Notes: generated by a model not told the origin, from the sequence alone. Shown: positions 1-13,249, counted from the first letter of the stretch. The stretch: DNA of 64,000 nucleotides from Candidatus Aldehydirespiratoraceae bacterium (GCA_965198315.1 OZ240616.1:3383671-3447670); one strand, 5' to 3'. Translations and numbers: made by a program.

Positions 1-2213
<2,213 letters not shown>

Positions 2214-2216
2214 CAG

Positions 2217-3431
2217 TCACTCTCCCACTGGTTCGCGGGCCGACACTTCTCGACTGCGCCTGAGCAACTCAATCAACTTCGGTGCCGGTGTCAGGGAAGT
2301 CTCTGTGAGTTCCCAACCGATGCCGGCCTCAACCGCCGCGGCTGATGCTTGCGATAGCAACTGTGCGGCAGAATCGCGGTCAACTTCAAGTGGCTCCGGA
2401 GCTGAACCATCACGGCCCACTAGCTCCAGAACCGGCTTGTGTTCTGGGATCAACAGGCAACGAGACCGAAGATCGTGATCTGCCTCGTATCCGTAGGCAA
2501 TAGCCGCGACACCCAGTGCGGCTACGGCTGTGCGCGCTGCCACCTCTGCCTCTCGGCTTACGTTGCTAAAACGCAGACGTCTTAGTGCAGCAAGCGAGAT
2601 CACCGTCGTCTGGCGGGCTTCTGAAATGGTCACCCCACCAGACTGTGCATCGATTGAGGGCGCGATATTGCCGTGATTGATTTCGGAAGGACGACCGTCA
2701 GATCCCGCAGTCTTGGCTTTTCCCTTCTCTTGGGCCGCCTCATCTTTGTCCAGCGTCCATACTTGGGCCGGATCACTGTGTTCATACGCAATCGCTGCGG
2801 CACGTTCGATCTGGAGCGGATCAATGCGGCTCCCGACCTTGCGCCCGATCTGAGCATCCAAGCCGACAATCTCCGACACATAGGCACGTTGAAACTTCGA
2901 GCCCAAGCCACCCTTGGGGCCAGTCGAGTCCCACTGGCCGAACAAGAGCGCCGTTGGTGCATACTGGAACATCGCCCTCGCGTTTCCCGGACGCGCATCG
3001 GTGATGTCTTGACCGACTTCACTCAGCCGGAACAACGTTCCTTCAAGCATGCTGTCGCGGAAGATTGCGTCCGCAAATCGATGGGGCGCATCCAACACCG
3101 TGATCTTGCCAAGGTCTGCGACAGCGGCCTCTCCCGTAAAATCCACGTAAGGAACCGGGAAACGCAGCTCCCCTTCTTCCCAACCTTCCTTCAAAGCAAG
3201 TTCAGCACGGTTTGCCTGGGAAGCCACGGAGTCGAGCAACACAGTTGTCACCACGCTGTCTCCTACCTGCCGTTCCTCAACGGCATACTTGTGCTCTGCG
3301 GTGACTGCGTAGGTCGGCGGAAACACTTTCCCTCCAGGCCCGTCCACGGGTTGCAGTCGCATGATCGAGCGAAGCGCCACTGCCCCGCCCCCAACCGCAT
3401 CGCGCAGCAAGTCAATAGTCAATTCAGCCAT
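2217..3431 (-). CDS. csb1: Type I-G/I-U CRISPR-associated RAMP protein Csb1 (Cas7u)
   Basis: 404-aa ORF containing LQPVDGPGGKVFPPTYA, LLDSVASQANRAE, VLDAPHRFADAIFRDS, LLFGQWDSTG and EINHGNIAPS, which are typical Csb1/Cas7u blocks from memory. A GAAGGAGG RBS lies upstream of ATG 3431. Confidence 0.8.
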   Translation of the reverse strand: MAELTIDLLRDAVGGGAVALRSIMRLQPVDGPGGKVFPPTYAVTAEHKYAVEERQVGDSVVTTVLLDSVASQANRAELALKEGWEEGELRFPVPYVDFTGEAAVADLGKITVLDAPHRFADAIFRDSMLEGTLFRLSEVGQDITDARPGNARAMFQYAPTALLFGQWDSTGPKGGLGSKFQRAYVSEIVGLDAQIGRKVGSRIDPLQIERAAAIAYEHSDPAQVWTLDKDEAAQEKGKAKTAGSDGRPSEINHGNIAPSIDAQSGGVTISEARQTTVISLAALRRLRFSNVSREAEVAARTAVAALGVAAIAYGYEADHDLRSRCLLIPEHKPVLELVGRDGSAPEPLEVDRDSAAQLLSQASAAAVEAGIGWELTETSLTPAPKLIELLRRSREVSAREPVGE

Positions 3432-3595
3432 TCAAGGCCTCCTTCTCTGGGGCTCAAGCACGGCACTCAAGCTAGGCGGATCAACCTAGCGCGGGGGTAT
3501 GACACTTTCGCCATATATACATCATGTCTGCCTTAGAATTTCACCATAAACGTGTGGAAGGGCGTCGCTGTGATGCCGACGAAGTACCCGAAAAC

Positions 3596-3950
3596 CTAGA
3601 ACTCGGCGGCGATGGCGTCTTCGAAGGAGGTGTCGGACTCGATGAGCATTCGGTAGCGCATCACGTGGCGGGGGCGGTTGAAACCCAAGACGCCAACCAA
3701 CCGACCGGCGCGGCCGTAGATCGCCGCGAAGCGCCTCTCGGAAAGGCTTCCCGTGGCGAGATGCATCTCGTCGTCGAGACCGATACGGCCGGCCATCTGA
3801 ATCTTGCGATCGTACTGATCGGACCAGAACCAAGGCACCGGCATAAAAGGCTCAGCCTCATCGTCACCGACCAGCAAGCGTCGGGCCGCATGAGCACCCT
3901 GTGCAACAGCGTTGTCGCGATGCTTGACACGCATCACTTCGCCGAATCGT
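3596..3950 (-). pseudogene. 3'-terminal fragment (last ~118 codons) of a ferredoxin reductase gene, copy of 4925-5279
   Basis: 355 bp align colinearly with 4925-5279 at roughly 90% identity by eye. Similarity starts exactly at the stop codon (ctagaa) and ends after ccgaaNcgt. The peptide RFGEVMRVKHRDNAVAQGAHAARRLL...RMLIESDTSFEDAIAAEF differs at 9 positions from the intact gene's C-terminus. No FAD/NAD-binding N-terminal part is present. Confidence 0.85.
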
Positions 3951-3965
3951 GACAATGTCAGTCTC

Positions 3966-4595
3966 TCACCATCCGGGCGGTTTGGTGATGGTTCCAATTT
4001 CGTCGGTCAACGTGTCAGGGAATTGGCTTCGCTTCAAGTGGCTCTTCCAGAGACGCTTCACGTAGGTCGCAGAATCGACCAGGTTCCTTGTGCTCCGATT
4101 GCGGGGGTCTGGGTTGACCACCACGACGCGCATACCCAAGCCGTCTCGCACAAACCGCATCGCCCCGGCGAAATCGGCGTCGTTGGATACGACTACCGCT
4201 TGCTCACATTCACCGTTGAAGCCATCGACCAGCAAACGAGTCGCAAGGTTCACGTCCGAACCCTTCTCCTCTGAGTTCCTCACCAACACGCTGCTGGGCA
4301 GCCCCGGCACCGGCTCCGCAAGGGGACGACGATTGACACCGGAACTAAAGTAACCGTAATAGACAATCAATTCCGGTAGCGTCTCCAGCGCCCTGAGGTA
4401 GATGAGTTGACGCTGAGGTTGCCCTTGATCGCCAGGACGAATTTCGAGCCGGGCCGTGAAGTAACAGACTCTGTTGATGGTGTCTTCAGGGAAGAGGGTC
4501 TCGGCCAGTTTGTGCAGGTCAAGCCAACGAAACGGGGTGTCCTTAAGAGCGCGGTAGTAGAGATTGAATCCGTCGATGTACACATTGGTGATCAA
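3966..4595 (-). CDS. NYN (LabA-like) domain protein, putative RNase
   Basis: VYIDGFNLYY ... CYFTA ... EEKGSDVNLA ... VVVSNDADF ... ITKPPGW fits the stand-alone bacterial NYN-domain family. The track ORF extends to 4706, but its first ~37 codons translate a repeated terminator-like element and a promoter-like sequence. TTG 4595-4593 is preceded by GGAGG (ggcGGAGGcggcagTTG) and gives M-ITNVYIDGFNLYY. Confidence 0.75.
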   Translation of the reverse strand: MITNVYIDGFNLYYRALKDTPFRWLDLHKLAETLFPEDTINRVCYFTARLEIRPGDQGQPQRQLIYLRALETLPELIVYYGYFSSGVNRRPLAEPVPGLPSSVLVRNSEEKGSDVNLATRLLVDGFNGECEQAVVVSNDADFAGAMRFVRDGLGMRVVVVNPDPRNRSTRNLVDSATYVKRLWKSHLKRSQFPDTLTDEIGTITKPPGW

Positions 4596-4604
4596 CTGCC
4601 GCCT

Positions 4605-4667
4605 CCGCCAAAAGACAGAGACCGCCCCGAAAGGCGGTCTCGACCCTACCGTCGAATCGAATAGGGG
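4605..4667 (-). repeat. 63-bp repeat copy A (hairpin GAGACCGCC-N6-GGCGGTCTC plus T-tract), in the NYN 5' leader
   Basis: 60/63 identical to 4800-4862. Contains a 9-bp perfect stem at 4618-4626/4633-4641. Confidence 0.9.
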
Positions 4668-4677
4668 TGGTGCCTGA

Positions 4678-4706
4678 ACACTATCGTCAGCATCATCGAC
4701 CGTCAA
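4678..4706 (-). promoter_or_regulatory. Candidate promoter for the NYN gene (-35 TTGACG, 17-nt spacer, -10 TAGTGT)
   Basis: The minus strand reads TTGACGgtcgatgatgctgacgaTAGTGT (-35 at 4706-4701, -10 at 4683-4678). It lies between the two 63-bp repeat copies. Motif match only. Confidence 0.3.
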
Positions 4707-4799
4707 CCCTATTCGTCAAGACGGGTTCAAAAAAGAAAGAGGACACGAGAGGACTGGAAACACAACCTGGCTATCAAGCGCCGCCTCGGCCAATAGTTG

Positions 4800-4862
4800 C
4801 CGCCAAAAGACAGAGACCGCCCCGAGAGGCGGTCTCGACCCTACCGCCGAAGCGAATAGGGG
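4800..4862 (-). repeat. 63-bp repeat copy B, downstream of the ferredoxin reductase stop
   Basis: 60/63 identical to 4605-4667. Confidence 0.9.
4803..4836 (-). terminator. Intrinsic terminator-like hairpin after the ferredoxin reductase gene
   Basis: Minus strand: GAGACCGCC-tctcgg-GGCGGTCTC followed by TGTCTTTTGG, about 90 nt after the stop at 4925. Confidence 0.6.
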
Positions 4863-4924
4863 GCAGTGCTTGAACCCTGCCATGGCGAGGCCAACTGACA
4901 ACTCCGCGGTTGGTGACCAACGCG

Positions 4925-6142
4925 CTAGAAATCGGCGGCGATTGCGTCGCTGAAGGAGGTGTCGGATTCGATGAGCATCCGGTAGCGCATCACGTGGCGG
5001 GGGCGGTTGAAACCCAAGACGCCGACCAGGCGACCGGCGCGGCCGTAGATCGTCGCGAAGCGCCTCTCGGCGAGGCTGCCCGTGGCGACATGCATCTCGT
5101 CGTCGAGACCGATACGGCCGGCCATCTGGATCTTGCGATCGTACTGATCGGACCAGAACCAAGGCACCGGCACGAAAGGCTCAGCCTCATCGTCATCAAC
5201 CAGCAAACGCCGGGCCGCGTGCGCACCCTGTGCAACAGCGTTGTCCCAATGCTCGACTCGCATAACCTCACCGAAACGTTGATTGGGCCAGCGAGCAACA
5301 TCACCGGCAGCAGTCACCCCCCGAGCCGCCAGACAAGTGGCGTCGCACACCACACCGTTGTCGATCCTCAACCCTGAACCCTCGAGCCATTCCGTGTTGG
5401 GGATCACTCCGATCCCAACGACAACCACGTCGGTCTCGATCACATTGCCGTCGCTGAGCCGCACCCGCTCCACCCGGCCGTCGCCTTCGATCGCCTCAAC
5501 ACCGACGCCGGTGCGCAGATCAACACCGTGTTCACGGTGCAACTCAGCGCACACCGCGCCCATCTCATCGCCCAGCACCCGACTCAAGGGCTGAGGCAAC
5601 GACTCGATCATCGTCACCTCAAGTCCCTGTGTTCTGGCGGTGGCGGCCACCTCGGCACCAATAAACCCGGCACCCACGATGACCACCCGAGCCGGACCCG
5701 CATCAAAAGCAGCCCGGATCGCCAGCGAGTCGTCCAAGCTGCGCAACACGAATACACCGTCGAGTTCCTCAGAACCCCCCAGCGTGCGACAACGCGCACC
5801 CGTAGCGATCAACAGCCCGTCAACGGCGAGCTCCTCACTGCTCTGATCATCGAGATCCACGATCCCCAAGCGCCGAGACGACAGATCAAAGCTCCTAGCC
5901 CGCACACCCAAACGAAGATCAAGATCAAGGTCATCGAGCTTTTCGGGCTGGGTCAACACCAGACGATCCTCGCCCCAATCACCTGCAAGGAACTGCTTGG
6001 ACAAGGGCGGGCGGTCGTACGGAGCATGCAGTTCGTCGCCGATCAGCGTGATCGGCCCGTCGAAGTCATGACGCCGAAGCGACTCCGCTGCCCGTAACCC
6101 TGCCAGAGAAGCTCCGACGATAGTGACAGAGCGCCGCGTCAT
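4925..6142 (-). CDS. NAD(P)H-dependent ferredoxin reductase (FAD-dependent pyridine nucleotide-disulfide oxidoreductase family)
   Basis: 405 aa. It has two dinucleotide-binding motifs (VTIVGASLAGLRAAESL and VVIVGAGFIGAEVA), and its overall layout resembles putidaredoxin/rhodocoxin-type reductases. It lies directly downstream of a small ferredoxin gene. Confidence 0.85.
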   Translation of the reverse strand: MTRRSVTIVGASLAGLRAAESLRRHDFDGPITLIGDELHAPYDRPPLSKQFLAGDWGEDRLVLTQPEKLDDLDLDLRLGVRARSFDLSSRRLGIVDLDDQSSEELAVDGLLIATGARCRTLGGSEELDGVFVLRSLDDSLAIRAAFDAGPARVVIVGAGFIGAEVAATARTQGLEVTMIESLPQPLSRVLGDEMGAVCAELHREHGVDLRTGVGVEAIEGDGRVERVRLSDGNVIETDVVVVGIGVIPNTEWLEGSGLRIDNGVVCDATCLAARGVTAAGDVARWPNQRFGEVMRVEHWDNAVAQGAHAARRLLVDDDEAEPFVPVPWFWSDQYDRKIQMAGRIGLDDEMHVATGSLAERRFATIYGRAGRLVGVLGFNRPRHVMRYRMLIESDTSFSDAIAADF

Positions 6143-6194
6143 AGATGCAAAAACCGTGGTGAGCCCTCAGTCGGCCCCTCAGCCCCCCAGCCCC

Positions 6195-6386
6195 TCAGCC
6201 CTGAACAGAGATGGCCTGCTTGGGGCAACGCTGAACGCACTCGTCGACTCGTGCGCGGTCTTCCTCACCGGGTTCTTCGTTCAGCACATACAAGAAGTCG
6301 TCGTCACGCACTTCAAAGATGTCCGGCGCGATCTGCATGCAGATGGCGTTGCTCTCACAGAGGTCGAAGTCAACCACGATCTTCAT
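6195..6386 (-). CDS. Small ferredoxin (3Fe-4S/4Fe-4S type, P450-system-like)
   Basis: 63 aa: MKIVVDFDLCESNAICMQIAPDIF...CVQRCPKQAISV, with the CxxxxxC...CP cluster-binding pattern. An AGGAAAGG RBS is present. Confidence 0.85.
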   Translation of the reverse strand: MKIVVDFDLCESNAICMQIAPDIFEVRDDDFLYVLNEEPGEEDRARVDECVQRCPKQAISVQG

Positions 6387-6468
6387 GGGTCACCTTTCCT
6401 ATCAGGTCACAGGGGAACAGGTCACTCCGGAACTTAGCCCACGCAGGGCTCTGGTGTGAACATCAGCG

Positions 6469-6534
6469 TCAACCAACGCCAGATCCGGCACGGCCTCCGC
6501 TGCGATCCACCACGATGTTGTACCGCTCGCGAAC
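6469..6534 (-). pseudogene. Displaced 3' end of an mttB-family gene (remnant)
   Basis: The minus strand reads ...VRERYNIVVDRSGGRAGSGVG-stop (TGA 6471-6469). The VRERYNIVVDRS part is encoded by the 38-bp repeat shared with the intact gene's 3' end at 11667-11704. Confidence 0.65.
6497..6534. repeat. 38-bp direct repeat, left copy (cassette boundary)
   Basis: ccgctgcgatccaccacgatgttgtaccgctcgcgaac is 36/38 identical to 11667-11704. Flanks on both sides are unrelated. Confidence 0.9.
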
Positions 6535-6702
6535 AACCTCCCACATCCCCGAGTCGATCAACAAGTTGTAATTCCCACCTTTAAGTCCTGGCCGCACTGC
6601 GTTACGGGCCTGCACCGTAATCCATAGAGGAGTGTTTTCATATTATTTCATGTACTTTACGAACGGAAGGAATCGAAAAGCCATGAAGATAGAAGTGATA
6701 AC

Positions 6703-7119
6703 TTGTCACCCCCCTACTACAACCAGTTGCCTGAGCAGCTTCAACGGGAGTTGGAGACAGCTGAGCGAGTCCGCCTCACCCCTGTTGAGATTCCCAGCGA
6801 AGAATTTAACTCCTTGGCAGCCGACGGTGTGCCAATGATCTACGTCCTGGTGGGCGGACATCTGCTGGTGTCGAAACGAAAAGTCGGCGATGAGCACATC
6901 TCCCATGCCGTGCTCGCAAACGGTGGCCCTGTGCAAGCCGCCGGGGAGTTCGATATCGGGACCGAACACGGAGCGCCCGTCGTATCGACCCTCAACAACA
7001 TGAGCGGTCACTACCGTCCAGCCGCAGCAAGCCTCGAGGTCGCCCGAACAGCATTCGAATCAGCTGGGGTACGGATCCCACCGGGTGCTGTCCAAAGCTA
7101 CGATTGGGGAGAATCATGA
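6703..7119 (+). CDS. Hypothetical protein (138 aa), upstream partner of the giant ORF
   Basis: ORF with a TTG start directly after in-frame stops (tgataacTTG). Its stop overlaps the next start (ATGA at 7116-7119). I recognise no family. Start uncertain (see findings). Confidence 0.55.
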   Translation: MSPPYYNQLPEQLQRELETAERVRLTPVEIPSEEFNSLAADGVPMIYVLVGGHLLVSKRKVGDEHISHAVLANGGPVQAAGEFDIGTEHGAPVVSTLNNMSGHYRPAAASLEVARTAFESAGVRIPPGAVQSYDWGES

Positions 7120-10100
7120 CTGCCGCAACCGCGCCGAGACAGCCCGCCGAGCCGGAGCCAACGATAGTCGACTCCGCACTTGAACGAATCGCGGAGGCGA
7201 CCGACTTCTTCGAATTTGAACAGGCGTGGATTAACGGATTGCGCCAACTGTCCGCCTCAGACGGAAGCGATTGCAGAGCGATGCTCTTGGCCGAAGCTGG
7301 CAGGCGACTCAGTGTGTTTGACGACATCAAGTACGATATTGCGCGGCGGCGCTGGCTCGACCAAGTGGTCGCGGAGGTGCGGATGCGCGGTGACTCATCC
7401 CTGGAAAGAGGGCTTGCGGTAGTGGCGACGAATGAACTCCGCGAGGCCTTCGCTAACGCCCGCCCAGCGATTACAGATCTGCGGGCGGCCGTGAATTCCG
7501 GGGAGAGCCTACATGAGTTCACGATTCGCTGTCCTTTAGCTGCGAATCAAGTCCGTGACCTCGGACGAATCGCAGAGGGACTGAGCGGCAGCGACCTGCT
7601 GGCGCTGTGTTCTGCGGAGGATTGCGAACTCGCCCGTAGTCTGGTGCGAGCCATGAAACCCCCAATCCATCTCGTGCCGACGGTACCTGAGTCCTTGCGG
7701 ATTACCCGAGATGACCTGCTTCAATGGGCTAAGACCAGTGGCGCTGCCACGGCATTCCCGAGGCTGATACGCAGTCTCATCGCCGAGACCGAACCGTCTG
7801 CTGAATCGGTCCACATGCCCGCAGGCACCGGGGTGGCGTCGCCTGGCTTTGACGGGGGCGTTAGATGTGCTCGCGGAAACCGCTTCGTACCAGCGGGAAC
7901 CTCCGTGTGGGAGCTGACAACACAGCAGAGAGGCACCCACGGCAAGGCTGTTGAGGACTACACGAAGCGAGTCAAAAACTCGACGTCTGACCAACGTTCC
8001 GAGACTGCGTACGTGTCGGCCGCGTGCGCCCCTTGGACGAAAGCACAGGCATTTGAGTCCCAATACTCCGACGACGGCGACTTCAGCAGGGTCAGCGCTT
8101 TGAACGTCGACAATCTTGAAGACTGGCTGTCGTGTGCCATCGCCACGACTGTCTGGATGTGTGAGCAGATCGGCAGGCCGACCGACGGCATCAGACTGCT
8201 GGCCGGGTGGTGGGAGAACTGGCTCACAGCAACGACTACTCCCCTTGACGAACGCTTCGTGCTCGCAGGACGCGATAAGGCAGCCACTGATCTGCGCGAT
8301 CGCTGCAAGCAAAACCCCGGCGTCGTCACCATTGGCGGTCAAGTCCACCGCGACGAGATGGTCGCCTTTGTCGCTGCCGCGCTCCTCCCCGAAGAAGCTG
8401 AGGGGATGGGTGTCGGGGATGTGCTCTTCGTGGACGATCACAAGTCCGCTCAACGGCTGTTCGCGCAGGAAGTTCTGTCGATGCCTTCGGACCAGCAAAG
8501 CGCCGGTCCCGTGCTGACGATGGTGGTGCCGTCAGCGGACTATGCGCACCACCTGCCCGCCGGAAGCCCACATCGGATTATCGTGCCGGTCCCCGGAGGT
8601 CCCCAAACCGAAATCGTCCTCGATTCGGTCGACTCGACAGTGGTCAGCAAGCACTTCGAGACCACCGGAATGGAACACCACGAGGCGTACCGCCTGGGTG
8701 GGCTGGCTCGAACGAGCCTGATGGCGCTCCGGCGGCATCTCACCGCCCAAGCAGCCTTGCACATGCCCGAATGGGCGAAGAGGACACCCGACCGAACGAT
8801 ACGGCGAAGCCTGCTGCTCGGCGGTTGGAATGCGGCCCGCAGGGGTGATCGTGAGATCGTTTCACGATTCACCTGCCAGTCACACGAGGATGTGGCCGAG
8901 GAGTTGCGGAAACTCGACCCCGGCGATTCACCGATGACTTCAACCGGCGAACTGTGGCATGCCGTATCACCAGCAGACACTTGGATGCTGCTGCGCGCGC
9001 ACCTATCCCCCAGCGATCTCCAAGAGTTTGCTGAAATCGCAGTCGAGGTGCTCACGGCTTCTGACCCGCTGCGAGAGATGAGTCACGAAGAGGCGCTCCG
9101 AGCCCAGGTCGAGGGCATCAAAGCCAAGTTCTCATCTCAACTCAAGCATGGGATTGCAACGACGCTGGCACTTGCGGGGACCGACCCTCCCACCCACCAC
9201 GGCGAAACGACGCCAGACTCGAACTTCGCGGAGGGAACAACTCGGCAAGTGCTGGACTCTGCCATGGACGACACAACTCCAAGCACGTGGATTGCCGTCA
9301 CTGATGCGTTGCCGATACTTGCCGAGGCTGCGCCCGACGCAGTACTTAAGAGCTTGCGGACCTGTGTAGCCGAGCAGCACGCGTTCACTGAAGCCATGTT
9401 CACCGACCACGATGACAACTTGTTTGGCTTCTCGGCTTCGTCGCCACACCTTCGGATCTTGAATGCGCTCGAAGTCATCGCATGGTCACCTGACCACCTG
9501 CTGGCCGCAGTAGACGTCCTCGCCCGACTCGCCTCCATCGACCCTGGCGGCCAGTATTCGAACCGACCCGATGAGACTCTCGCTTCGATCCTGTGTCCGT
9601 GGATGCCGTACACATCCGCCGACATCGAAGTTCGGCTCAAGGCGGTCCGAATGCTGCGGCAGGCCCATCCAAACGTCGCTTGGCCGCTGATGCTGTCTAT
9701 TTTGCCACGGAACCACAACGTCCAAACCCCTGGGGCATTGCCGCAGTATCGAGACTGGAGGCCCTCGCAGCGGGATGTGACGCTCAGCGAGCGTGTGGCG
9801 CCCGACGAGCGCACGCAAGCAACTACCGAAATCGCCGCGATGCTGATTGACGACGTTGGAGGCGACCCCGAGCGCTGGACGGACTTGATCGGACGTGTCG
9901 GCGACCTTCCTGTGGAAGCCCGCCGAAGTGCAGTTTCGGTCCTAGGGGACCTTGCAGCTGCCGGAGCCGACGAGGCGTTCAGGTCAAGGGTCTGGCCGGT
10001 ACTAAAGGTATTCGTTGCACGTCACCGGCAGTTCCGCGATGTCAAGTGGGCACTCCCGTCAGCCGACCTGCTGGTGTTCGAGCAGATCATGGACGATCTC

Positions 10101-11546
10101 CGTCCCGCTGAACCCTCGATCTCCTCCGGTGAGTTGTTTTCCAACAGCCCCTTCCACCTTGATGGTGTATGGGCTGCGGATGGGTATGAGGAGTTCCGAA
10201 AAGCTCTACTACCGAGACAGACGGAGGCCGTCGACGCGGTCATGTCCAGCGGCGGGTTCAAAGCGCTGTTCGAATTCGCTGCTGCGGTTGACAATCCGCG
10301 TCAAGTTGGCAGAGCCCTTGCGCGCTGTCGGCCGGGTCTTGATGAGCAAGTACTTCCGGCCATGGATTCCGCTCGCGAGGCAGTCACACAGGTATCGCTG
10401 GGCTATTTCGGCCAACGTTTTGCCTCGCTGGAGTGGCAGGGTTTGGAGCAACTGCTCAGAGAGAACGATCTGTCACCTCAAGTCACTGCGGATGTGCTGC
10501 GCGCACCTCCCCCAGTGGCGCGTGCTTGGACGCGGGTAGAAGCTCACGGTGCCGAAGTCGCAGCCGAGTACTGGAGCCGTGTGAGCTACTACGACCTCGG
10601 AATCCCGGACGGATTAGACCAGTTGCTCGAGGTGTATCGCCGGCTACTTGCAGTAGACCGCCACGAACTGGCTCGGTGGTTGCTCACGCTGCGTGCGAAG
10701 GAATACGCGTCCCATCCTGAGTTCGCCGAGGAGGCCGCTGCCCTTCTCGAACACTGGCTTGAACACCCGGGTGGCGAGATCAAGCAGAACGCCATGACCA
10801 GTTGGCGATTGGCCTCGCTCTTCAGGACTCTCGACAACCACCGAGACCATCTGGGTACGGCGCGTGTCGCTGCCCTCGAATGGCAATACCTCCCGCTCCT
10901 TCAAAACGATCCCGAGTTCAGTTCGCCGAATCTGTACCGGGAGATGCTGCATGACCTCGACCTGTTCGTGCATTTCGTGGAAATCGCCTTCATGCCTGCC
11001 AACGCTGCAATGGACGAACGACCCCCGCTGACGACAGCACAACAACAAATGGCACTCAGTGCCTGGGGCGTGCTGCGCGATTGGCCAGCCTCACAGTTCA
11101 CGCCGGGGTTCGACAATGAAGACAAACTCGATGAGGTCTCGCTCAACGAGTGGGTCGACCGCACTCGCGAGAGGCTTGCAGCAGTCGACCGGGCGGACAT
11201 CGGTGATCAGATGATCGGGGCCGCACTCGCCTCTTCTCCGGCAGACTCAAACGGGGATTGGCCCGGTGAGGCCGTTCGCAATCTGCTGGAACGACTGCAG
11301 AGTGACGATGTAGAGCAAGGTCTCTATACCGCCATCCTCAACCAGCGTGGTATCACGACCCGCTCCCCAACTGACGGCGGCAACCAGGAGCGCGAACTCG
11401 CAGACAACTACAAAGAGCAGAGCTGTCGCTACCAGCAGTGGCCCCGTACAGCGGCCCTCTTCAGCCAGCTTGCAAAAAGCTACGAGCACGAGGGCGGCGT
11501 TCTCGACCGTCAGGCCGAGATCTCCCGCCGCGGCTTACCGAGATAA
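7116..11546 (+). CDS. Hypothetical giant protein (1476 aa), no recognisable NTPase motif, largely alpha-helical
   Basis: Uninterrupted 4.4-kb ORF. ATG 7116 follows GGGGAG and overlaps the upstream stop; the track start TTG 7104 is 4 codons earlier. No Walker A, TM segment or signal peptide was seen. Confidence 0.85.
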   Translation: MTAATAPRQPAEPEPTIVDSALERIAEATDFFEFEQAWINGLRQLSASDGSDCRAMLLAEAGRRLSVFDDIKYDIARRRWLDQVVAEVRMRGDSSLERGLAVVATNELREAFANARPAITDLRAAVNSGESLHEFTIRCPLAANQVRDLGRIAEGLSGSDLLALCSAEDCELARSLVRAMKPPIHLVPTVPESLRITRDDLLQWAKTSGAATAFPRLIRSLIAETEPSAESVHMPAGTGVASPGFDGGVRCARGNRFVPAGTSVWELTTQQRGTHGKAVEDYTKRVKNSTSDQRSETAYVSAACAPWTKAQAFESQYSDDGDFSRVSALNVDNLEDWLSCAIATTVWMCEQIGRPTDGIRLLAGWWENWLTATTTPLDERFVLAGRDKAATDLRDRCKQNPGVVTIGGQVHRDEMVAFVAAALLPEEAEGMGVGDVLFVDDHKSAQRLFAQEVLSMPSDQQSAGPVLTMVVPSADYAHHLPAGSPHRIIVPVPGGPQTEIVLDSVDSTVVSKHFETTGMEHHEAYRLGGLARTSLMALRRHLTAQAALHMPEWAKRTPDRTIRRSLLLGGWNAARRGDREIVSRFTCQSHEDVAEELRKLDPGDSPMTSTGELWHAVSPADTWMLLRAHLSPSDLQEFAEIAVEVLTASDPLREMSHEEALRAQVEGIKAKFSSQLKHGIATTLALAGTDPPTHHGETTPDSNFAEGTTRQVLDSAMDDTTPSTWIAVTDALPILAEAAPDAVLKSLRTCVAEQHAFTEAMFTDHDDNLFGFSASSPHLRILNALEVIAWSPDHLLAAVDVLARLASIDPGGQYSNRPDETLASILCPWMPYTSADIEVRLKAVRMLRQAHPNVAWPLMLSILPRNHNVQTPGALPQYRDWRPSQRDVTLSERVAPDERTQATTEIAAMLIDDVGGDPERWTDLIGRVGDLPVEARRSAVSVLGDLAAAGADEAFRSRVWPVLKVFVARHRQFRDVKWALPSADLLVFEQIMDDLRPAEPSISSGELFSNSPFHLDGVWAADGYEEFRKALLPRQTEAVDAVMSSGGFKALFEFAAAVDNPRQVGRALARCRPGLDEQVLPAMDSAREAVTQVSLGYFGQRFASLEWQGLEQLLRENDLSPQVTADVLRAPPPVARAWTRVEAHGAEVAAEYWSRVSYYDLGIPDGLDQLLEVYRRLLAVDRHELARWLLTLRAKEYASHPEFAEEAAALLEHWLEHPGGEIKQNAMTSWRLASLFRTLDNHRDHLGTARVAALEWQYLPLLQNDPEFSSPNLYREMLHDLDLFVHFVEIAFMPANAAMDERPPLTTAQQQMALSAWGVLRDWPASQFTPGFDNEDKLDEVSLNEWVDRTRERLAAVDRADIGDQMIGAALASSPADSNGDWPGEAVRNLLERLQSDDVEQGLYTAILNQRGITTRSPTDGGNQERELADNYKEQSCRYQQWPRTAALFSQLAKSYEHEGGVLDRQAEISRRGLPR

Positions 11547-11656
11547 GAAGACTGACCCGATTCCTTCCGGAACTGCACACGGCTACTGCGCGAAACGTCT
11601 GTCTTCTGTCTGCAGAATAGTGGCGTCATACCAGCCGCGACTACCGAGACTGCTGG

Positions 11657-13249
11657 TCAACTAGCACCGCTGCGATCCACCACAATGTTGTAGCGCTCGC
11701 GAACTGCAGCATCAGCAACAGGGTCAACGTGAGCCGGAAAATGGGAAGACAAAACCTCTTTGGCGTATTCGTGAGCCACTCGCAGCGCGTCCTTACCGCC
11801 AGCATCCACCCAGTCATCGGGCGTGTCACGATCCCCAATGAGCGGATAGATGTACTCCTTCTGCATCAACTCGAGCGTCTGAGGCGAGCCGAGGAAATGA
11901 CCCGGCCCGTTCACGACTTCTGTAATGAGGTTGGCAGACAACGTCTCTTCGTTGACCTCGATACCGCGAACGGTGCGGTTGATCGATCCCAGCATGTCGT
12001 TGTCGATCACCAGAGCTTCCAGTGAGCAACTCAGCAGACTCCCGAGCATCCCCGCGCTCTCATACACGAGATTGGCCCCCGCCTGGCCGGCCAGCACGAC
12101 GTTGATCCCCTTCTCGTAACCGGCCTGGTTGTCCGGGACTTTCGAGTCGGTCATACCCGCCGCCACACCCGATGGCAGCCCCAACCAGTTCACAACCTGC
12201 GCGGCGGCCGCGTTGAGCACCCCCTCCTCACCGCTCCCTCCACTCATCGCCCCCGTACGGAGGTCCGAGACGAAGGGCCAAAGCCCCATCACGCAGGGAT
12301 GACCGGGGCTCATCAGGTTGACCGCGGTGAGCGCAGAGAGGCATTCGGCGAGTGCCTGGGCCAGCGAACCGGCCAGCGCGGCCGGCGAGGTCGCCCCCGC
12401 CTGACCCGCCGACAACAGGTTGATCGGCATGCCCGACTCCACCTGGGCAACCATGCAGTTCGTCGATTCCTCAGCGAAACGCAGCGGCGGAACGACAAAA
12501 GTGTTGTTGGCGGCCACAAACGGTCGCTTCCGAAATGATCCCTCTCCGCCCGCCATCATGTCGTACATCTCGACCGTCTCATAGACATGGGCCCGCTCGA
12601 ACCACGATGTGCCGACAGGTTTACCGGTGCCGACTGTGGCGCCATAGGCAGTGTTGAGATCCAGTTCACGCGAGTCCTCGCGGTCCCGTGCCACCACGGT
12701 GCGGACAAAGAAATGGATGTTGTCGAGATAGTCGACCAGGCGGGCGCAGTTGTAGACGTCTTGAGCGGTGCTGTGCCGGAAGGTGTTGGTCTGGTAGTCG
12801 TACATCAGCACCGCAGCGCCGGCGGTTCCGAAATGGACACGGTCGCCACCGACCTCGATCGAGCGGTCGTCGTCGAAGCCGTGCCAGGTCCATTCCTTGG
12901 CCGCGGTGGCGATGGCGTTCTCTATGAGTGCTCTGGGGTACAGCAGCCGACCCGAATCGTCAAGGGTGCCGCCCGCGTCGACGACTACTTCCACGAACTC
13001 CGGAACTGGAGACCCCATCCCCACATGTTCCAGAAGGCCCAGCGCCGTGTCGTAGACCTGCTGCATATCCGAGTCGGCCAAGGGCTTGAATTTCCCGCCT
13101 GGGAGTCCGGGCCGAACCGGGCGTGCGTCTTCTTGCAGGGGCGCAGCGCGTTCGGCAATGCGCCCGGCACGTCCACCTGACCTACGGCGACGAGGCTCGT
13201 CGCTCACTGTGGGTTCACAGTCCCTCCCGTGCGGTTGCCCGACCGACAA
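11657..13249 (-). CDS. Trimethylamine methyltransferase (MttB) superfamily protein, non-pyrrolysine type (quaternary amine, e.g. glycine betaine, methyltransferase candidate)
   Basis: 530 aa. The N-terminus ...RRRRSGGRAGRIAERAAPL...PGLPGGKFKPLADSDMQQVYDTALGLLEHVGM is typical of the MttB family. There is no in-frame amber codon. Confidence 0.8.
   Translation of the reverse strand: MSVGQPHGRDCEPTVSDEPRRRRSGGRAGRIAERAAPLQEDARPVRPGLPGGKFKPLADSDMQQVYDTALGLLEHVGMGSPVPEFVEVVVDAGGTLDDSGRLLYPRALIENAIATAAKEWTWHGFDDDRSIEVGGDRVHFGTAGAAVLMYDYQTNTFRHSTAQDVYNCARLVDYLDNIHFFVRTVVARDREDSRELDLNTAYGATVGTGKPVGTSWFERAHVYETVEMYDMMAGGEGSFRKRPFVAANNTFVVPPLRFAEESTNCMVAQVESGMPINLLSAGQAGATSPAALAGSLAQALAECLSALTAVNLMSPGHPCVMGLWPFVSDLRTGAMSGGSGEEGVLNAAAAQVVNWLGLPSGVAAGMTDSKVPDNQAGYEKGINVVLAGQAGANLVYESAGMLGSLLSCSLEALVIDNDMLGSINRTVRGIEVNEETLSANLITEVVNGPGHFLGSPQTLELMQKEYIYPLIGDRDTPDDWVDAGGKDALRVAHEYAKEVLSSHFPAHVDPVADAAVRERYNIVVDRSGAS
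11667..11704. repeat. 38-bp direct repeat, right copy (inside the 3' end of mttB)
   Basis: ccgctgcgatccaccacaatgttgtagcgctcgcgaac; see 6497-6534. Confidence 0.9.

Follow-up and report, generated by a model that had tools for sequence, protein, structure and literature searches.

In some toxin-based abortive-infection systems, PARIS (AriA-AriB) and the fused CapRel being examples, a larger partner holds a toxin and releases it on infection. In polymorphic toxin systems the toxin module is defined by its position at the extreme C-terminus, after the trafficking regions (Zhang et al. 2012, PMC3482391). The locus described here lies in a window (the whole stretch of DNA analysed) of 64,000 nucleotides from the acidimicrobial Candidatus Aldehydirespiratoraceae bacterium (GCA_965198315.1 OZ240616.1:3383671-3447670), in which a 5.1-kb cassette of two plus-strand genes is found between mttB and fdx, on the strand opposite to that of the operon. 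The cassette encodes a small protein of 138 aa and a large protein of 1476 aa. We give about even chances to the view that it is a dispensable, vertically persisting conflict or defence module, in which a toxin would be held and released by a large sensor; the defence function is one that we infer from context. A toxin and a large sensor in a defence island follow a known logic, and both protein families are unnamed in the libraries searched.

A profile of the small domain was searched against 1.84 billion cluster representatives (E <= 1e-3) and gave 1162 matches. In the longer matches listed (about 200-4000 aa) the domain is located mostly at the very C-terminus, and the Pfam families upstream of it in multi-domain matches are RHS repeats, ALF repeats and, in some of them directly before it, PT-HINT. 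Examples are a PT-HINT at residues 3549-3653 followed by the domain at 3656-3774 and another at 958-1090 followed by the domain at 1092-1214; moreover, in several members the "VHN" end of PT-HINT directly precedes the domain. These matches identify the small protein as a homolog of the toxin domain with which Rhs and PT-HINT polymorphic toxins end. When 69 diverse homologs were scanned with Pfam (E <= 1), only the upstream PT-HINT and RHS regions were matched, with no model covering the domain itself, and the motif was not found in Zhang et al. 2012 (PMC3482391).

The 46 close homologs of the small protein are all from acidimicrobial metagenome-assembled genomes, and each is on a contig carrying a homolog of the large protein. 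Residues R59, H68, A79, A80, G81, S101, G102, H103, Y104 and P106 are invariant in the acidimicrobial alignment and E82 is nearly so, while conservation throughout the family concerns H68, AG(E/Q) at 80-82, SGH(Y/F) at 101-104 and P106. The small protein is a putative enzyme toxin, and the conserved pattern of His, Glu, Ser and His suggests a hydrolase, possibly a metal-independent RNase. The AlphaFold2 (AF2) model built from the homolog alignment has a predicted local distance difference test (pLDDT) of 93, and the domain as modelled appears to be without a solved structural relative. An ADP-ribosyltransferase reading was considered, and the order of the conserved residues and the lack of a fold match speak against it; the latter speaks also against a barnase-like reading.

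As in the polymorphic toxins with Rhs, PT-HINT or ALF-repeat regions (PMC3482391), the homology extends over the whole length of the domain and a partner gene is placed immediately downstream. In contrast to them, the cassette toxin is free-standing and consists of the domain only, without a secretion, trafficking or repeat region, and its downstream gene encodes the large protein instead of a small immunity protein. Distant free-standing homologs on metagenome contigs are followed by open reading frames (ORFs) of about 105-195 aa, which is the size of immunity proteins, and not by the large gene.

The original prediction, made from the window alone, could place neither protein in a named family. 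This holds for Pfam, NCBIfam and PADLOC-DB v2.0.0, none of which gave a match for the two proteins, and the library searches put neither ORF in a housekeeping family; nevertheless both proteins have large homologous families. The large protein matches PHROG 18693 (function unknown; E 8.6e-108, residues 196-1466 against profile positions 4-1248 of 1258), and tblastn detected full-length relatives on 24 plasmid records (24-29% identity, 86-92% coverage, E down to 1e-125) from hosts that include Rhizobium, Cupriavidus, Shewanella, Arthrobacter and Adhaeribacter. Homology to proteins of about 1,350 aa annotated as "XRE family / helix-turn-helix" covers residues 196-1468 and includes the same invariant residues (e.g. 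E. coli WP_022645558.1, Rhizobium WP_105009704.1 and Shewanella WP_012197948.1). Most members of the family owe the annotation "XRE regulator" or helix-turn-helix (HTH) to an N-terminal XRE, HigA-type or HTH_17 domain; members from plasmids, viral contigs and enterobacteria carry HTH_3 or HTH_17, which the window protein does not. At present the members of this large family are thus labelled wrongly as regulators. In core homology, invariant residues and location as cargo of mobile elements and islands, the window protein resembles the PHROG 18693 family, whereas the members with an N-terminal HTH have no upstream toxin gene and the window protein has a non-HTH extension of 195 residues together with the small gene.

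The profile of the family recovers more than 1102 clusters, one of them, from Salmonella and E. coli, with 813 members. Among complete E. coli genomes, 82 of 5426 (1.5%) have a member, in an island with integrase, RadC and DUF2787 genes next to dhaR. In enterobacteria (L092-L095, L123) the relative is an HTH-bearing protein of 1343 aa, always followed by a gene for a 1004-aa ResIII/DEAD helicase. Eight IMG/VR contigs also carry members, and one of these copies is placed directly after a lambda P replication gene. Family members are in this way found as cargo of plasmids, genomic islands and prophages. Some further observations were made on these relatives. The enterobacterial pair of HTH-bearing large gene and helicase gene (WP_022645558.1 and WP_229479625.1 in E. 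coli FDAARGOS_497) looks like a candidate two-gene system in a tractable host, and in the Salmonella/E. coli island an adjacent 1727-aa protein is weakly similar to Avs4. In two members from viral contigs (L112 5212-8760, which is the copy behind lambda P, and L114 5158-8706) an N-terminal region of about 270 aa (NPFSTGGGGVHFEAHV...) replaces the nuclease-like domain described below.

An AF2 model of the large protein spans residues 196-1395 (pLDDT 86.5), and the domains derived from it are listed in Table 1. The first α/β domain carries the family-wide motif GWDG...VPAG.S.WE(I/L)(G/T)T...KA..D(Y/F).KR, and its modelled secondary structure (model numbering) is H15-30, E34-38, E52-56, E66-73, H79-93, E102-108. 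The family-invariant residues are D246 before β2, E266 in β3 and K277 in the following helix. A PD-(D/E)XK nuclease is recognised by an αβββαβ core in which β2 begins with an acidic residue and β3 holds (D/E)xK, and by comparison with this arrangement we infer that the first α/β domain is nuclease-like; searches of Pfam, the PDB and Foldseek gave the assignment no support. The C-terminal part of the solenoid has a strongly conserved motif, N.RGVT.R.P.DGG.QER.LA..YR...WPRTA...LA.SYE..A..D..AE. When the large model was compared with the PDB by Foldseek only generic solenoids were obtained (CAND1, importins, SA2 and SAMD9; template modelling (TM) score <= 0.25), and nothing significant was found in BFVD. 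PDB sequence searches with single sequences and profiles gave nothing below E 0.06.

Residues 1-195 of the large protein are conserved within the Acidimicrobiia, have no Pfam match and take the place of the HTH of most family members. We propose them as the module by which the small protein would be docked or neutralised. Shorter homologs of "1283 aa", which seemed to be without this extension, were found to be a gene-calling artefact. The possibility that the extension is a fused copy of the ORF found behind the distant toxin homologs was unsupported (BLASTP E 0.14, hhalign 0.2%).

The co-occurrence of the two genes, which the original prediction had put forward for analysis, proved to be constant among the loci examined. 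In about 20 loci (the window, L004-L008, L016, L018, L096-L101 and L117-L122) the small gene was directly upstream of every examined intact large gene with upstream contig sequence, and the ATGA overlap of the pair was present wherever gene calls were available. The accessory or defence setting that had been suggested is likewise supported, by the cas and NYN genes near the cassette and by the occurrence of the pair inside Hma/BREX-related islands elsewhere. In L006, L007, L117, L120 and L121 the pair is found beside or between DUF1156, DUF499/HEPN and SNF2-NOV_C genes, and near it at these loci are genes for reverse transcriptase, PemK, Macro, ADP-ribosylglycohydrolase, SLFN_AlbA and an SMC-like ATPase. 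DUF1156, DUF499 and SNF2-NOV_C together form the Hma system, and the hma locus is a hotspot for inserted defence genes (PMC11232893); Hma has recently been classed with BREX-related systems (PMC12839542). In its placement the pair is like other inserted defence systems reported there (PMC11232893; PMC12839542). Unlike those loci, the window has no Hma genes, with Cas_GSU0054, Cas_GSU0053 and NYN genes beyond fdr, and the pair is not an Hma component.

In Adhaeribacter the relative of the large gene has before it a gene for a YhcG nuclease, which is the PADLOC candidate PDC-S02, and an HTH with ImmA/IrrE, and after it a DUF4238 gene; on the viral contig L115 a RelA/SpoT-domain gene (PDC-S33) is directly upstream of it. 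As separate observations, ADP-ribosylglycohydrolase genes recur around the pair (L117 2046-16638; L006, L007, L121), and L006 and L007 have Macro-domain genes in its vicinity. Of the three ADP-ribosylglycohydrolase genes of L117, two adjoin a gene for a PTP/DSPc phosphatase, with two more phosphatase genes not far away.

PADLOC gave no core match for four other family members. The core region gave only two matches, both weak and both to PD-Lambda-4_A, from the Shewanella (E 9.5e-5) and Salmonella homologs. PD-lambda-4 is Avs8, an Avs/STAND (signal transduction ATPases with numerous domains) sensor (bioRxiv 10.64898/2026.01.04.697583). The large protein resembles these sensors in its size, in the nuclease-like N-terminal domain, in the long helical repeats, in this weak match and in SAMD9 being among the Foldseek matches. 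Nevertheless, neither a Walker A motif nor a Pfam nucleoside triphosphatase domain was found in it and the Foldseek TM of 0.13 represents generic solenoid similarity; an Avs/STAND reading was rejected on the lack of both. With PARIS and CapRel the cassette shares the proposed logic of a toxin that would be made constitutively and held, the defence-island context and the rapid evolution, but there is no sequence or fold relation, the large protein has no ATPase, and the PADLOC models for AriA, AriB and related proteins were unmatched. Literature searches on PHROG 18693, Poriferisodalis and defence by HEAT repeats with polymorphic toxins found no publication on either protein family.

A scan for MttB relatives with one genome per species yielded 80 loci, onto which the window genes were mapped. 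The site is empty in seven close relatives (L012, L014, L017, L019, L020, L021 and L023; MttB 91-95% identical), where mttB is directly followed by fdx and fdr as had been predicted; an ancestral order of two dimethylglycine dehydrogenase (DMGDH) genes, mttB, fdx and fdr, split by the cassette, is therefore confirmed. It is occupied in L013, L016 and L018, and also in L004 and L005, while in L015, L025 and L026 the cassette is decayed (fragmented or pseudogenised). A DUF4143/AAA_14 ATPase gene is found instead in L022 and L024, and both inserts in L026. Compared in this way, the mttB-fdx site is a multi-state hotspot that may be empty or hold the cassette, the DUF4143 ATPase or both. In a tree of the 6.5-kb dmg-dmg-mttB flank, the empty L014 and L020 fall inside the clade of repeat-flanked cassettes, and occupied and empty genomes are also mixed in two further clades. 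The empty sites, the interleaving of occupied and empty genomes and the pseudogenised copies together imply that the cassette is dispensable.

The synonymous divergence (dS) from L004 and L005 was 0.22 and 0.36 for the large gene and 0.25 and 0.32 for the small gene, the values for mttB being 0.45 and 0.43 and those for fdr 0.13 and 0.14. Since the dS of the cassette is within the range of the flanks, the insertion is old, and a recent insertion was rejected. The ratio of nonsynonymous to synonymous divergence (dN/dS) was 0.37-0.39 for the large gene and 0.29-0.34 for the small one (a range including L016 and L018), against 0.06-0.07 for mttB and 0.10-0.13 for fdr. These estimates indicate that the cassette has been inherited along with its flanks, with several losses or inactivations, and that both its genes are under purifying selection with a protein change about five times faster than that of the flanking genes. 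Accessory conflict genes usually show this combination of fast protein change and retained function.

In the mechanism that we propose, the 138-aa protein would act as a toxin, and the 1476-aa protein, directly downstream and translationally coupled, would take the "immunity" position. The N-terminal extension of 195 residues would hold the toxin inactive and the conserved core, with its nuclease-like domain and HEAT-like solenoid, would be the scaffold and sensor. A phage or other invader would perturb the complex, by which the toxin would be freed or activated, and the freed toxin would stop the growth of the infected cell (abortive infection). Other members of the family would have swapped the N-terminal or upstream module, which would be in their case an XRE/HigA-type HTH or a gene for a YhcG nuclease, a RelA/SpoT protein or a helicase.

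Several points weigh against this mechanism. Toxicity, neutralisation and a phage phenotype are here predictions from the genes, and PADLOC has no model that matches either protein. The activity of the small protein is unassigned in spite of its confident model, for which Foldseek gave no match in the PDB (best E 0.12). Moreover, some of its homologs have three to five tandem copies of the domain, with the internal copies lacking SGHY, which is unusual for a toxin domain. The nuclease assignment of the large protein is based on topology and motif, the lysine of ExK is replaced by T or G, and K277 is assumed to be the substitute. Between the extension and the ORFs behind the distant toxin homologs no similarity was found (E 0.14 by BLASTP, a probability of 0.2% by hhalign); since the immunity proteins of a single toxin family often have no relation to each other, the result counts neither for nor against a role in neutralisation. 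Furthermore, YhcG and RelA/SpoT next to the large gene may each be a system of one gene in its own right and not a partner, and in L008 and L119 the pair has mostly metabolic surroundings. The tandem-copy homologs are P0287, P0290, P0306, P0307, P0334 and P0362, examples being four copies in a 779-aa protein and four in one of 1491 aa, the N-terminus of which is repetitive and rich in Gly and Thr.

The cassette could also be a selfish toxin-immunity (addiction) module, which we consider unlikely. The large protein would then be an oversized antitoxin, and the pair would stabilise itself and its island, or would be an orphan of an Rhs locus, with no anti-phage role. The homology of the small protein to toxin domains agrees with this explanation, and so does the gene order, in which the toxin comes first like that of a polymorphic toxin or HigBA locus, as do the HigA/XRE-type HTH at the N-terminus of many family members and the persistence of the cassette at one site with a dS equal to that of its flanks. 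However, purifying selection acts on a conserved core of about 1,280 residues, much more than neutralisation would require, the repeated loss and pseudogenisation point to a weak addiction at best, and in most lineages the core family occurs without any toxin gene.

This last distribution, in which most family members have an HTH in place of the small partner, can be read in another way. The large protein could be the functional unit, a DNA-directed nuclease or regulator of mobile elements, and the small protein a non-toxic accessory subunit, such as an adaptor or regulator, that replaces the HTH function in this lineage; this seems to us distinctly unlikely. The invariant D, E and K are intact in the window copy, and the small domain could serve for binding, to judge from the proteins in which it stands in tandem with some copies degenerate. 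Nevertheless, the extreme C-terminus after PT-HINT or RHS is the classical slot of a toxin, and the invariant His/Ser/His pattern looks catalytic.

If the mechanism of a held toxin is carried over from the cassette to its relatives, the "XRE regulator" family of about 1,300-residue proteins could be a widespread class of immune sensors or scaffolds with an exchangeable N-terminal or upstream module, to which here an Rhs-type toxin of new fold would be docked for release on infection. This is possible, but we put it forward as a rather doubtful extension. Its reach would be considerable (more than 1,100 clusters, with plasmids and prophages among the carriers). If the held-toxin model is right, a large family labelled "transcriptional regulator" that has neither a Pfam model nor a PADLOC match would gain its first function, and an unnamed polymorphic-toxin domain, apparently of new fold, would join the intracellular immune effectors. 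It would also be another case of toxins common to inter-bacterial warfare and phage defence, and would show that a sensor core can exchange the effector or regulatory module attached to it. With the enterobacterial relatives the model can be tested directly in E. coli. The mttB-fdx site itself is a clean natural example of a multi-state hotspot, with repeated losses and the footprint of an integrase without the integrase.

The features of the cassette and its site are given in Table 1.

Table 1. Coordinates of the cassette genes, their domains and the insertion site, counted from the first letter of the window.
Feature	Position	Strand	Basis or remark
Small gene, free-standing homolog of polymorphic-toxin C-terminal domain	6703..7119	+	Alignment, AF2 model, profile search
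Large gene, residues 1-195, N-terminal extension, acidimicrobial-specific	7116..7700	+	Outside PHROG/plasmid homology, which begins at about residue 196
Large gene, residues ~196-355, conserved α/β domain with PD-(D/E)XK-like topology	7701..8180	+	AF2 model, invariant residues
Large gene, residues ~359-505, second α/β domain	8190..8630	+	AF2 model; no specific match
Large gene, residues ~507-1476, helical HEAT/ARM-like solenoid	8634..11546	+	AF2 model, conservation
Cassette leader	6535..6702	+	AT-rich; two TTTCAT hexamers 10 nt apart, 6636-6641 and 6646-6651
Displaced original mttB 3' end	6469..6534	-	Left repeat 6497-6534, tail GGRAGSGVG and stop; reads as in L020, L012, L017
Right direct repeat, present 3' end of functional mttB	11667..11704	-	Tail GAS and stop
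mttB-family methyltransferase gene, insertion target	11657..13249	-	Pfam MTTB; orthologs in 80 genomes
Ferredoxin gene fdx	6195..6386	-	Directly after mttB in empty-site relatives
Spacer, large-gene stop to mttB stop	11547..11656	.	Junction alignment

The layout agrees with what the original prediction had described, namely two plus-strand ORFs, the small one with a TTG start and the large one at 7116-11546, joined by an ATGA overlap of 4 nt and preceded by an AT-rich leader. The G+C content of the leader is 0.54, against about 0.60 around it. Its TTTCAT motif accompanies the pair both at the mttB site (L004, L005, L016, L018) and in an unrelated context (L006), and a scan of the leader for sigma-70 consensus promoters returned no sites. 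The leader is probably a promoter or operator region.

The direct repeats bounding the cassette are identical at 36 of 38 positions, and their peptides, tail and distance to fdx were all found as had been described. A search of the whole window allowing up to 3 mismatches, with 100 dinucleotide-preserving shuffles as control, gave only these two copies of the 38-nt repeat and none in the shuffles; the local alignment score was 66, against a shuffle maximum of 29-30. The right copy is the end (...VRERYNIVVDRSGAS and stop) of the 530-aa mttB ORF (Pfam MTTB, E 1e-101). The left copy reads on the minus strand VRERYNIVVDRSGGRAGSGVG and stop, that is, the right-copy peptide plus the tail GGRAGSGVG, and its stop (6469-6471) is 82 nt from the fdx ATG at 6386.

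The empty site of L020 shows that the left copy is, as had been proposed, the original mttB 3' end in a displaced position: the peptide there ends in ...DRTGGRAGSGAA and stop, followed by the same intergenic sequence as at the left junction of the window; the DNA (...GATCGCACCGGAGGCCGTGCCGGATCTGGTGCTGCTTGACGCTGATGTTCAC...) is nearly base for base the left repeat, tail and intergenic sequence of the window up to fdx. Positions 6535-6600 have no extended homology to mttB, so that the left copy is not a decayed paralog. The repeats are real, although 38 bp is too short a bound: they measure 44-47 bp in L004, L005 and L016, and on the outer side the junction alignment extends past the stop codon to GTTGAC(GCTG), with an indel. 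From this alignment the duplicated unit is taken to be the whole mttB 3' terminus (about 60-85 bp). By the same alignment, the spacer is of cassette origin, and relatives have extra repeated segments there. The long repeats are present in the window, L004, L005 and L016, but the same gene order occurs without them at this site in the L018/L025 clade, where only a 10-12 bp repeat, GCGAGTTGGC, flanks the insert. The original prediction had named relatives of this kind as a refutation, and this applies to it in part.

No direct or inverted repeats flank the pair in eight other genomic contexts, and therefore the repeats belong to one insertion event. As far as these contexts show, they mark the insertion at the mttB site alone and are not the termini of a mobile element; the pair as a self-contained mobile element was rejected on the same finding. 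The junctions indicate that the insertion took place in the last codons of mttB, the insert bringing a replacement 3' end and the original end being pushed to the fdx side, and the present functional mttB ends in the tail GAS supplied by the insert. The 3' end of a gene is the target of integrative elements such as e14, which inserts into icd and brings a replacement end with it. The cassette is similar to these in the new mttB terminus and in the displacement of the original one as a direct repeat. It differs from them in its size of only 5.1 kb, in having no integrase in or next to the insert, in the absence of the repeats elsewhere and in the lack of long repeats in the L018/L025 clade.

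Judged as an integrative element, the cassette has direct repeats from which the target gene regains its 3' end, and no gene for a tyrosine or serine recombinase. As had been stated, no integrase, transposase or terminal inverted repeat was found in the cassette, the only two ORFs between the repeats being neither of them recombinase-like, and no recombinase was found at the mttB-fdx site of L026. The geometry of replacement and displaced ends would be the product expected of an integrase-mediated 3'-end insertion, and the repeats, with the sequence CGGTACAACATYGTGGTGGATCGCA, may be candidate att sites; the core sequence of the mttB end was not found in viral contigs. It was also observed that in the left copy, which is non-coding, a 25-nt core, CGGTACAACAT(C/T)GTGGTGGATCGCA, does not vary among the window, L004, L005 and L016 at a synonymous divergence of 0.2-0.4. 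The core may be constrained because recombination takes place there, or may be kept alike by gene conversion from the coding copy.

This geometry without an integrase, together with the pseudogenised copies in L015, L025 and L026, is what would be expected if the cassette were cargo left behind by an integrative element, now decayed, that had the mttB 3' end as its target, the genes of the cassette drifting and without a current role. We regard this as very improbable, as both ORFs are intact over 4.8 kb with a dN/dS of 0.3-0.4, and the same pair is intact in about 20 loci in distant contexts. A housekeeping or metabolic role tied to the surrounding methylamine and dimethylglycine genes is hardly conceivable, for only the position between mttB and fdx suggests it, while the empty sites effectively refute it (seven close relatives have the same operon without the cassette) and the pair lies in unrelated contexts elsewhere and on the strand opposite to the operon.

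Some minor observations concern the other genes of the site and its surroundings. The AAA_14 and DUF4143 ATPase gene encodes 418-425 aa and is located at 10791-12047 in L022, 10759-12024 in L024 and 15159-16436 in L026. The flank beyond fdx-fdr is variable: positions 465-4706 of the window contain Cas_GSU0054/GSU0053 (type I-U/I-G-like) and an NYN gene, L005 has a type I-E cas set and NYN (1-7451), and L004 has a gene for an 1852-aa cadherin-like/PPC protein (1448-7006). Between the NYN gene and the ferredoxin reductase gene of the window there is a 63-nt direct repeat, 95% identical (4605-4667 and 4800-4862). It holds a GC-rich hairpin, AGACCGCC...GGCGGTCT, and may be a repetitive extragenic palindromic (REP)-like or terminator element.

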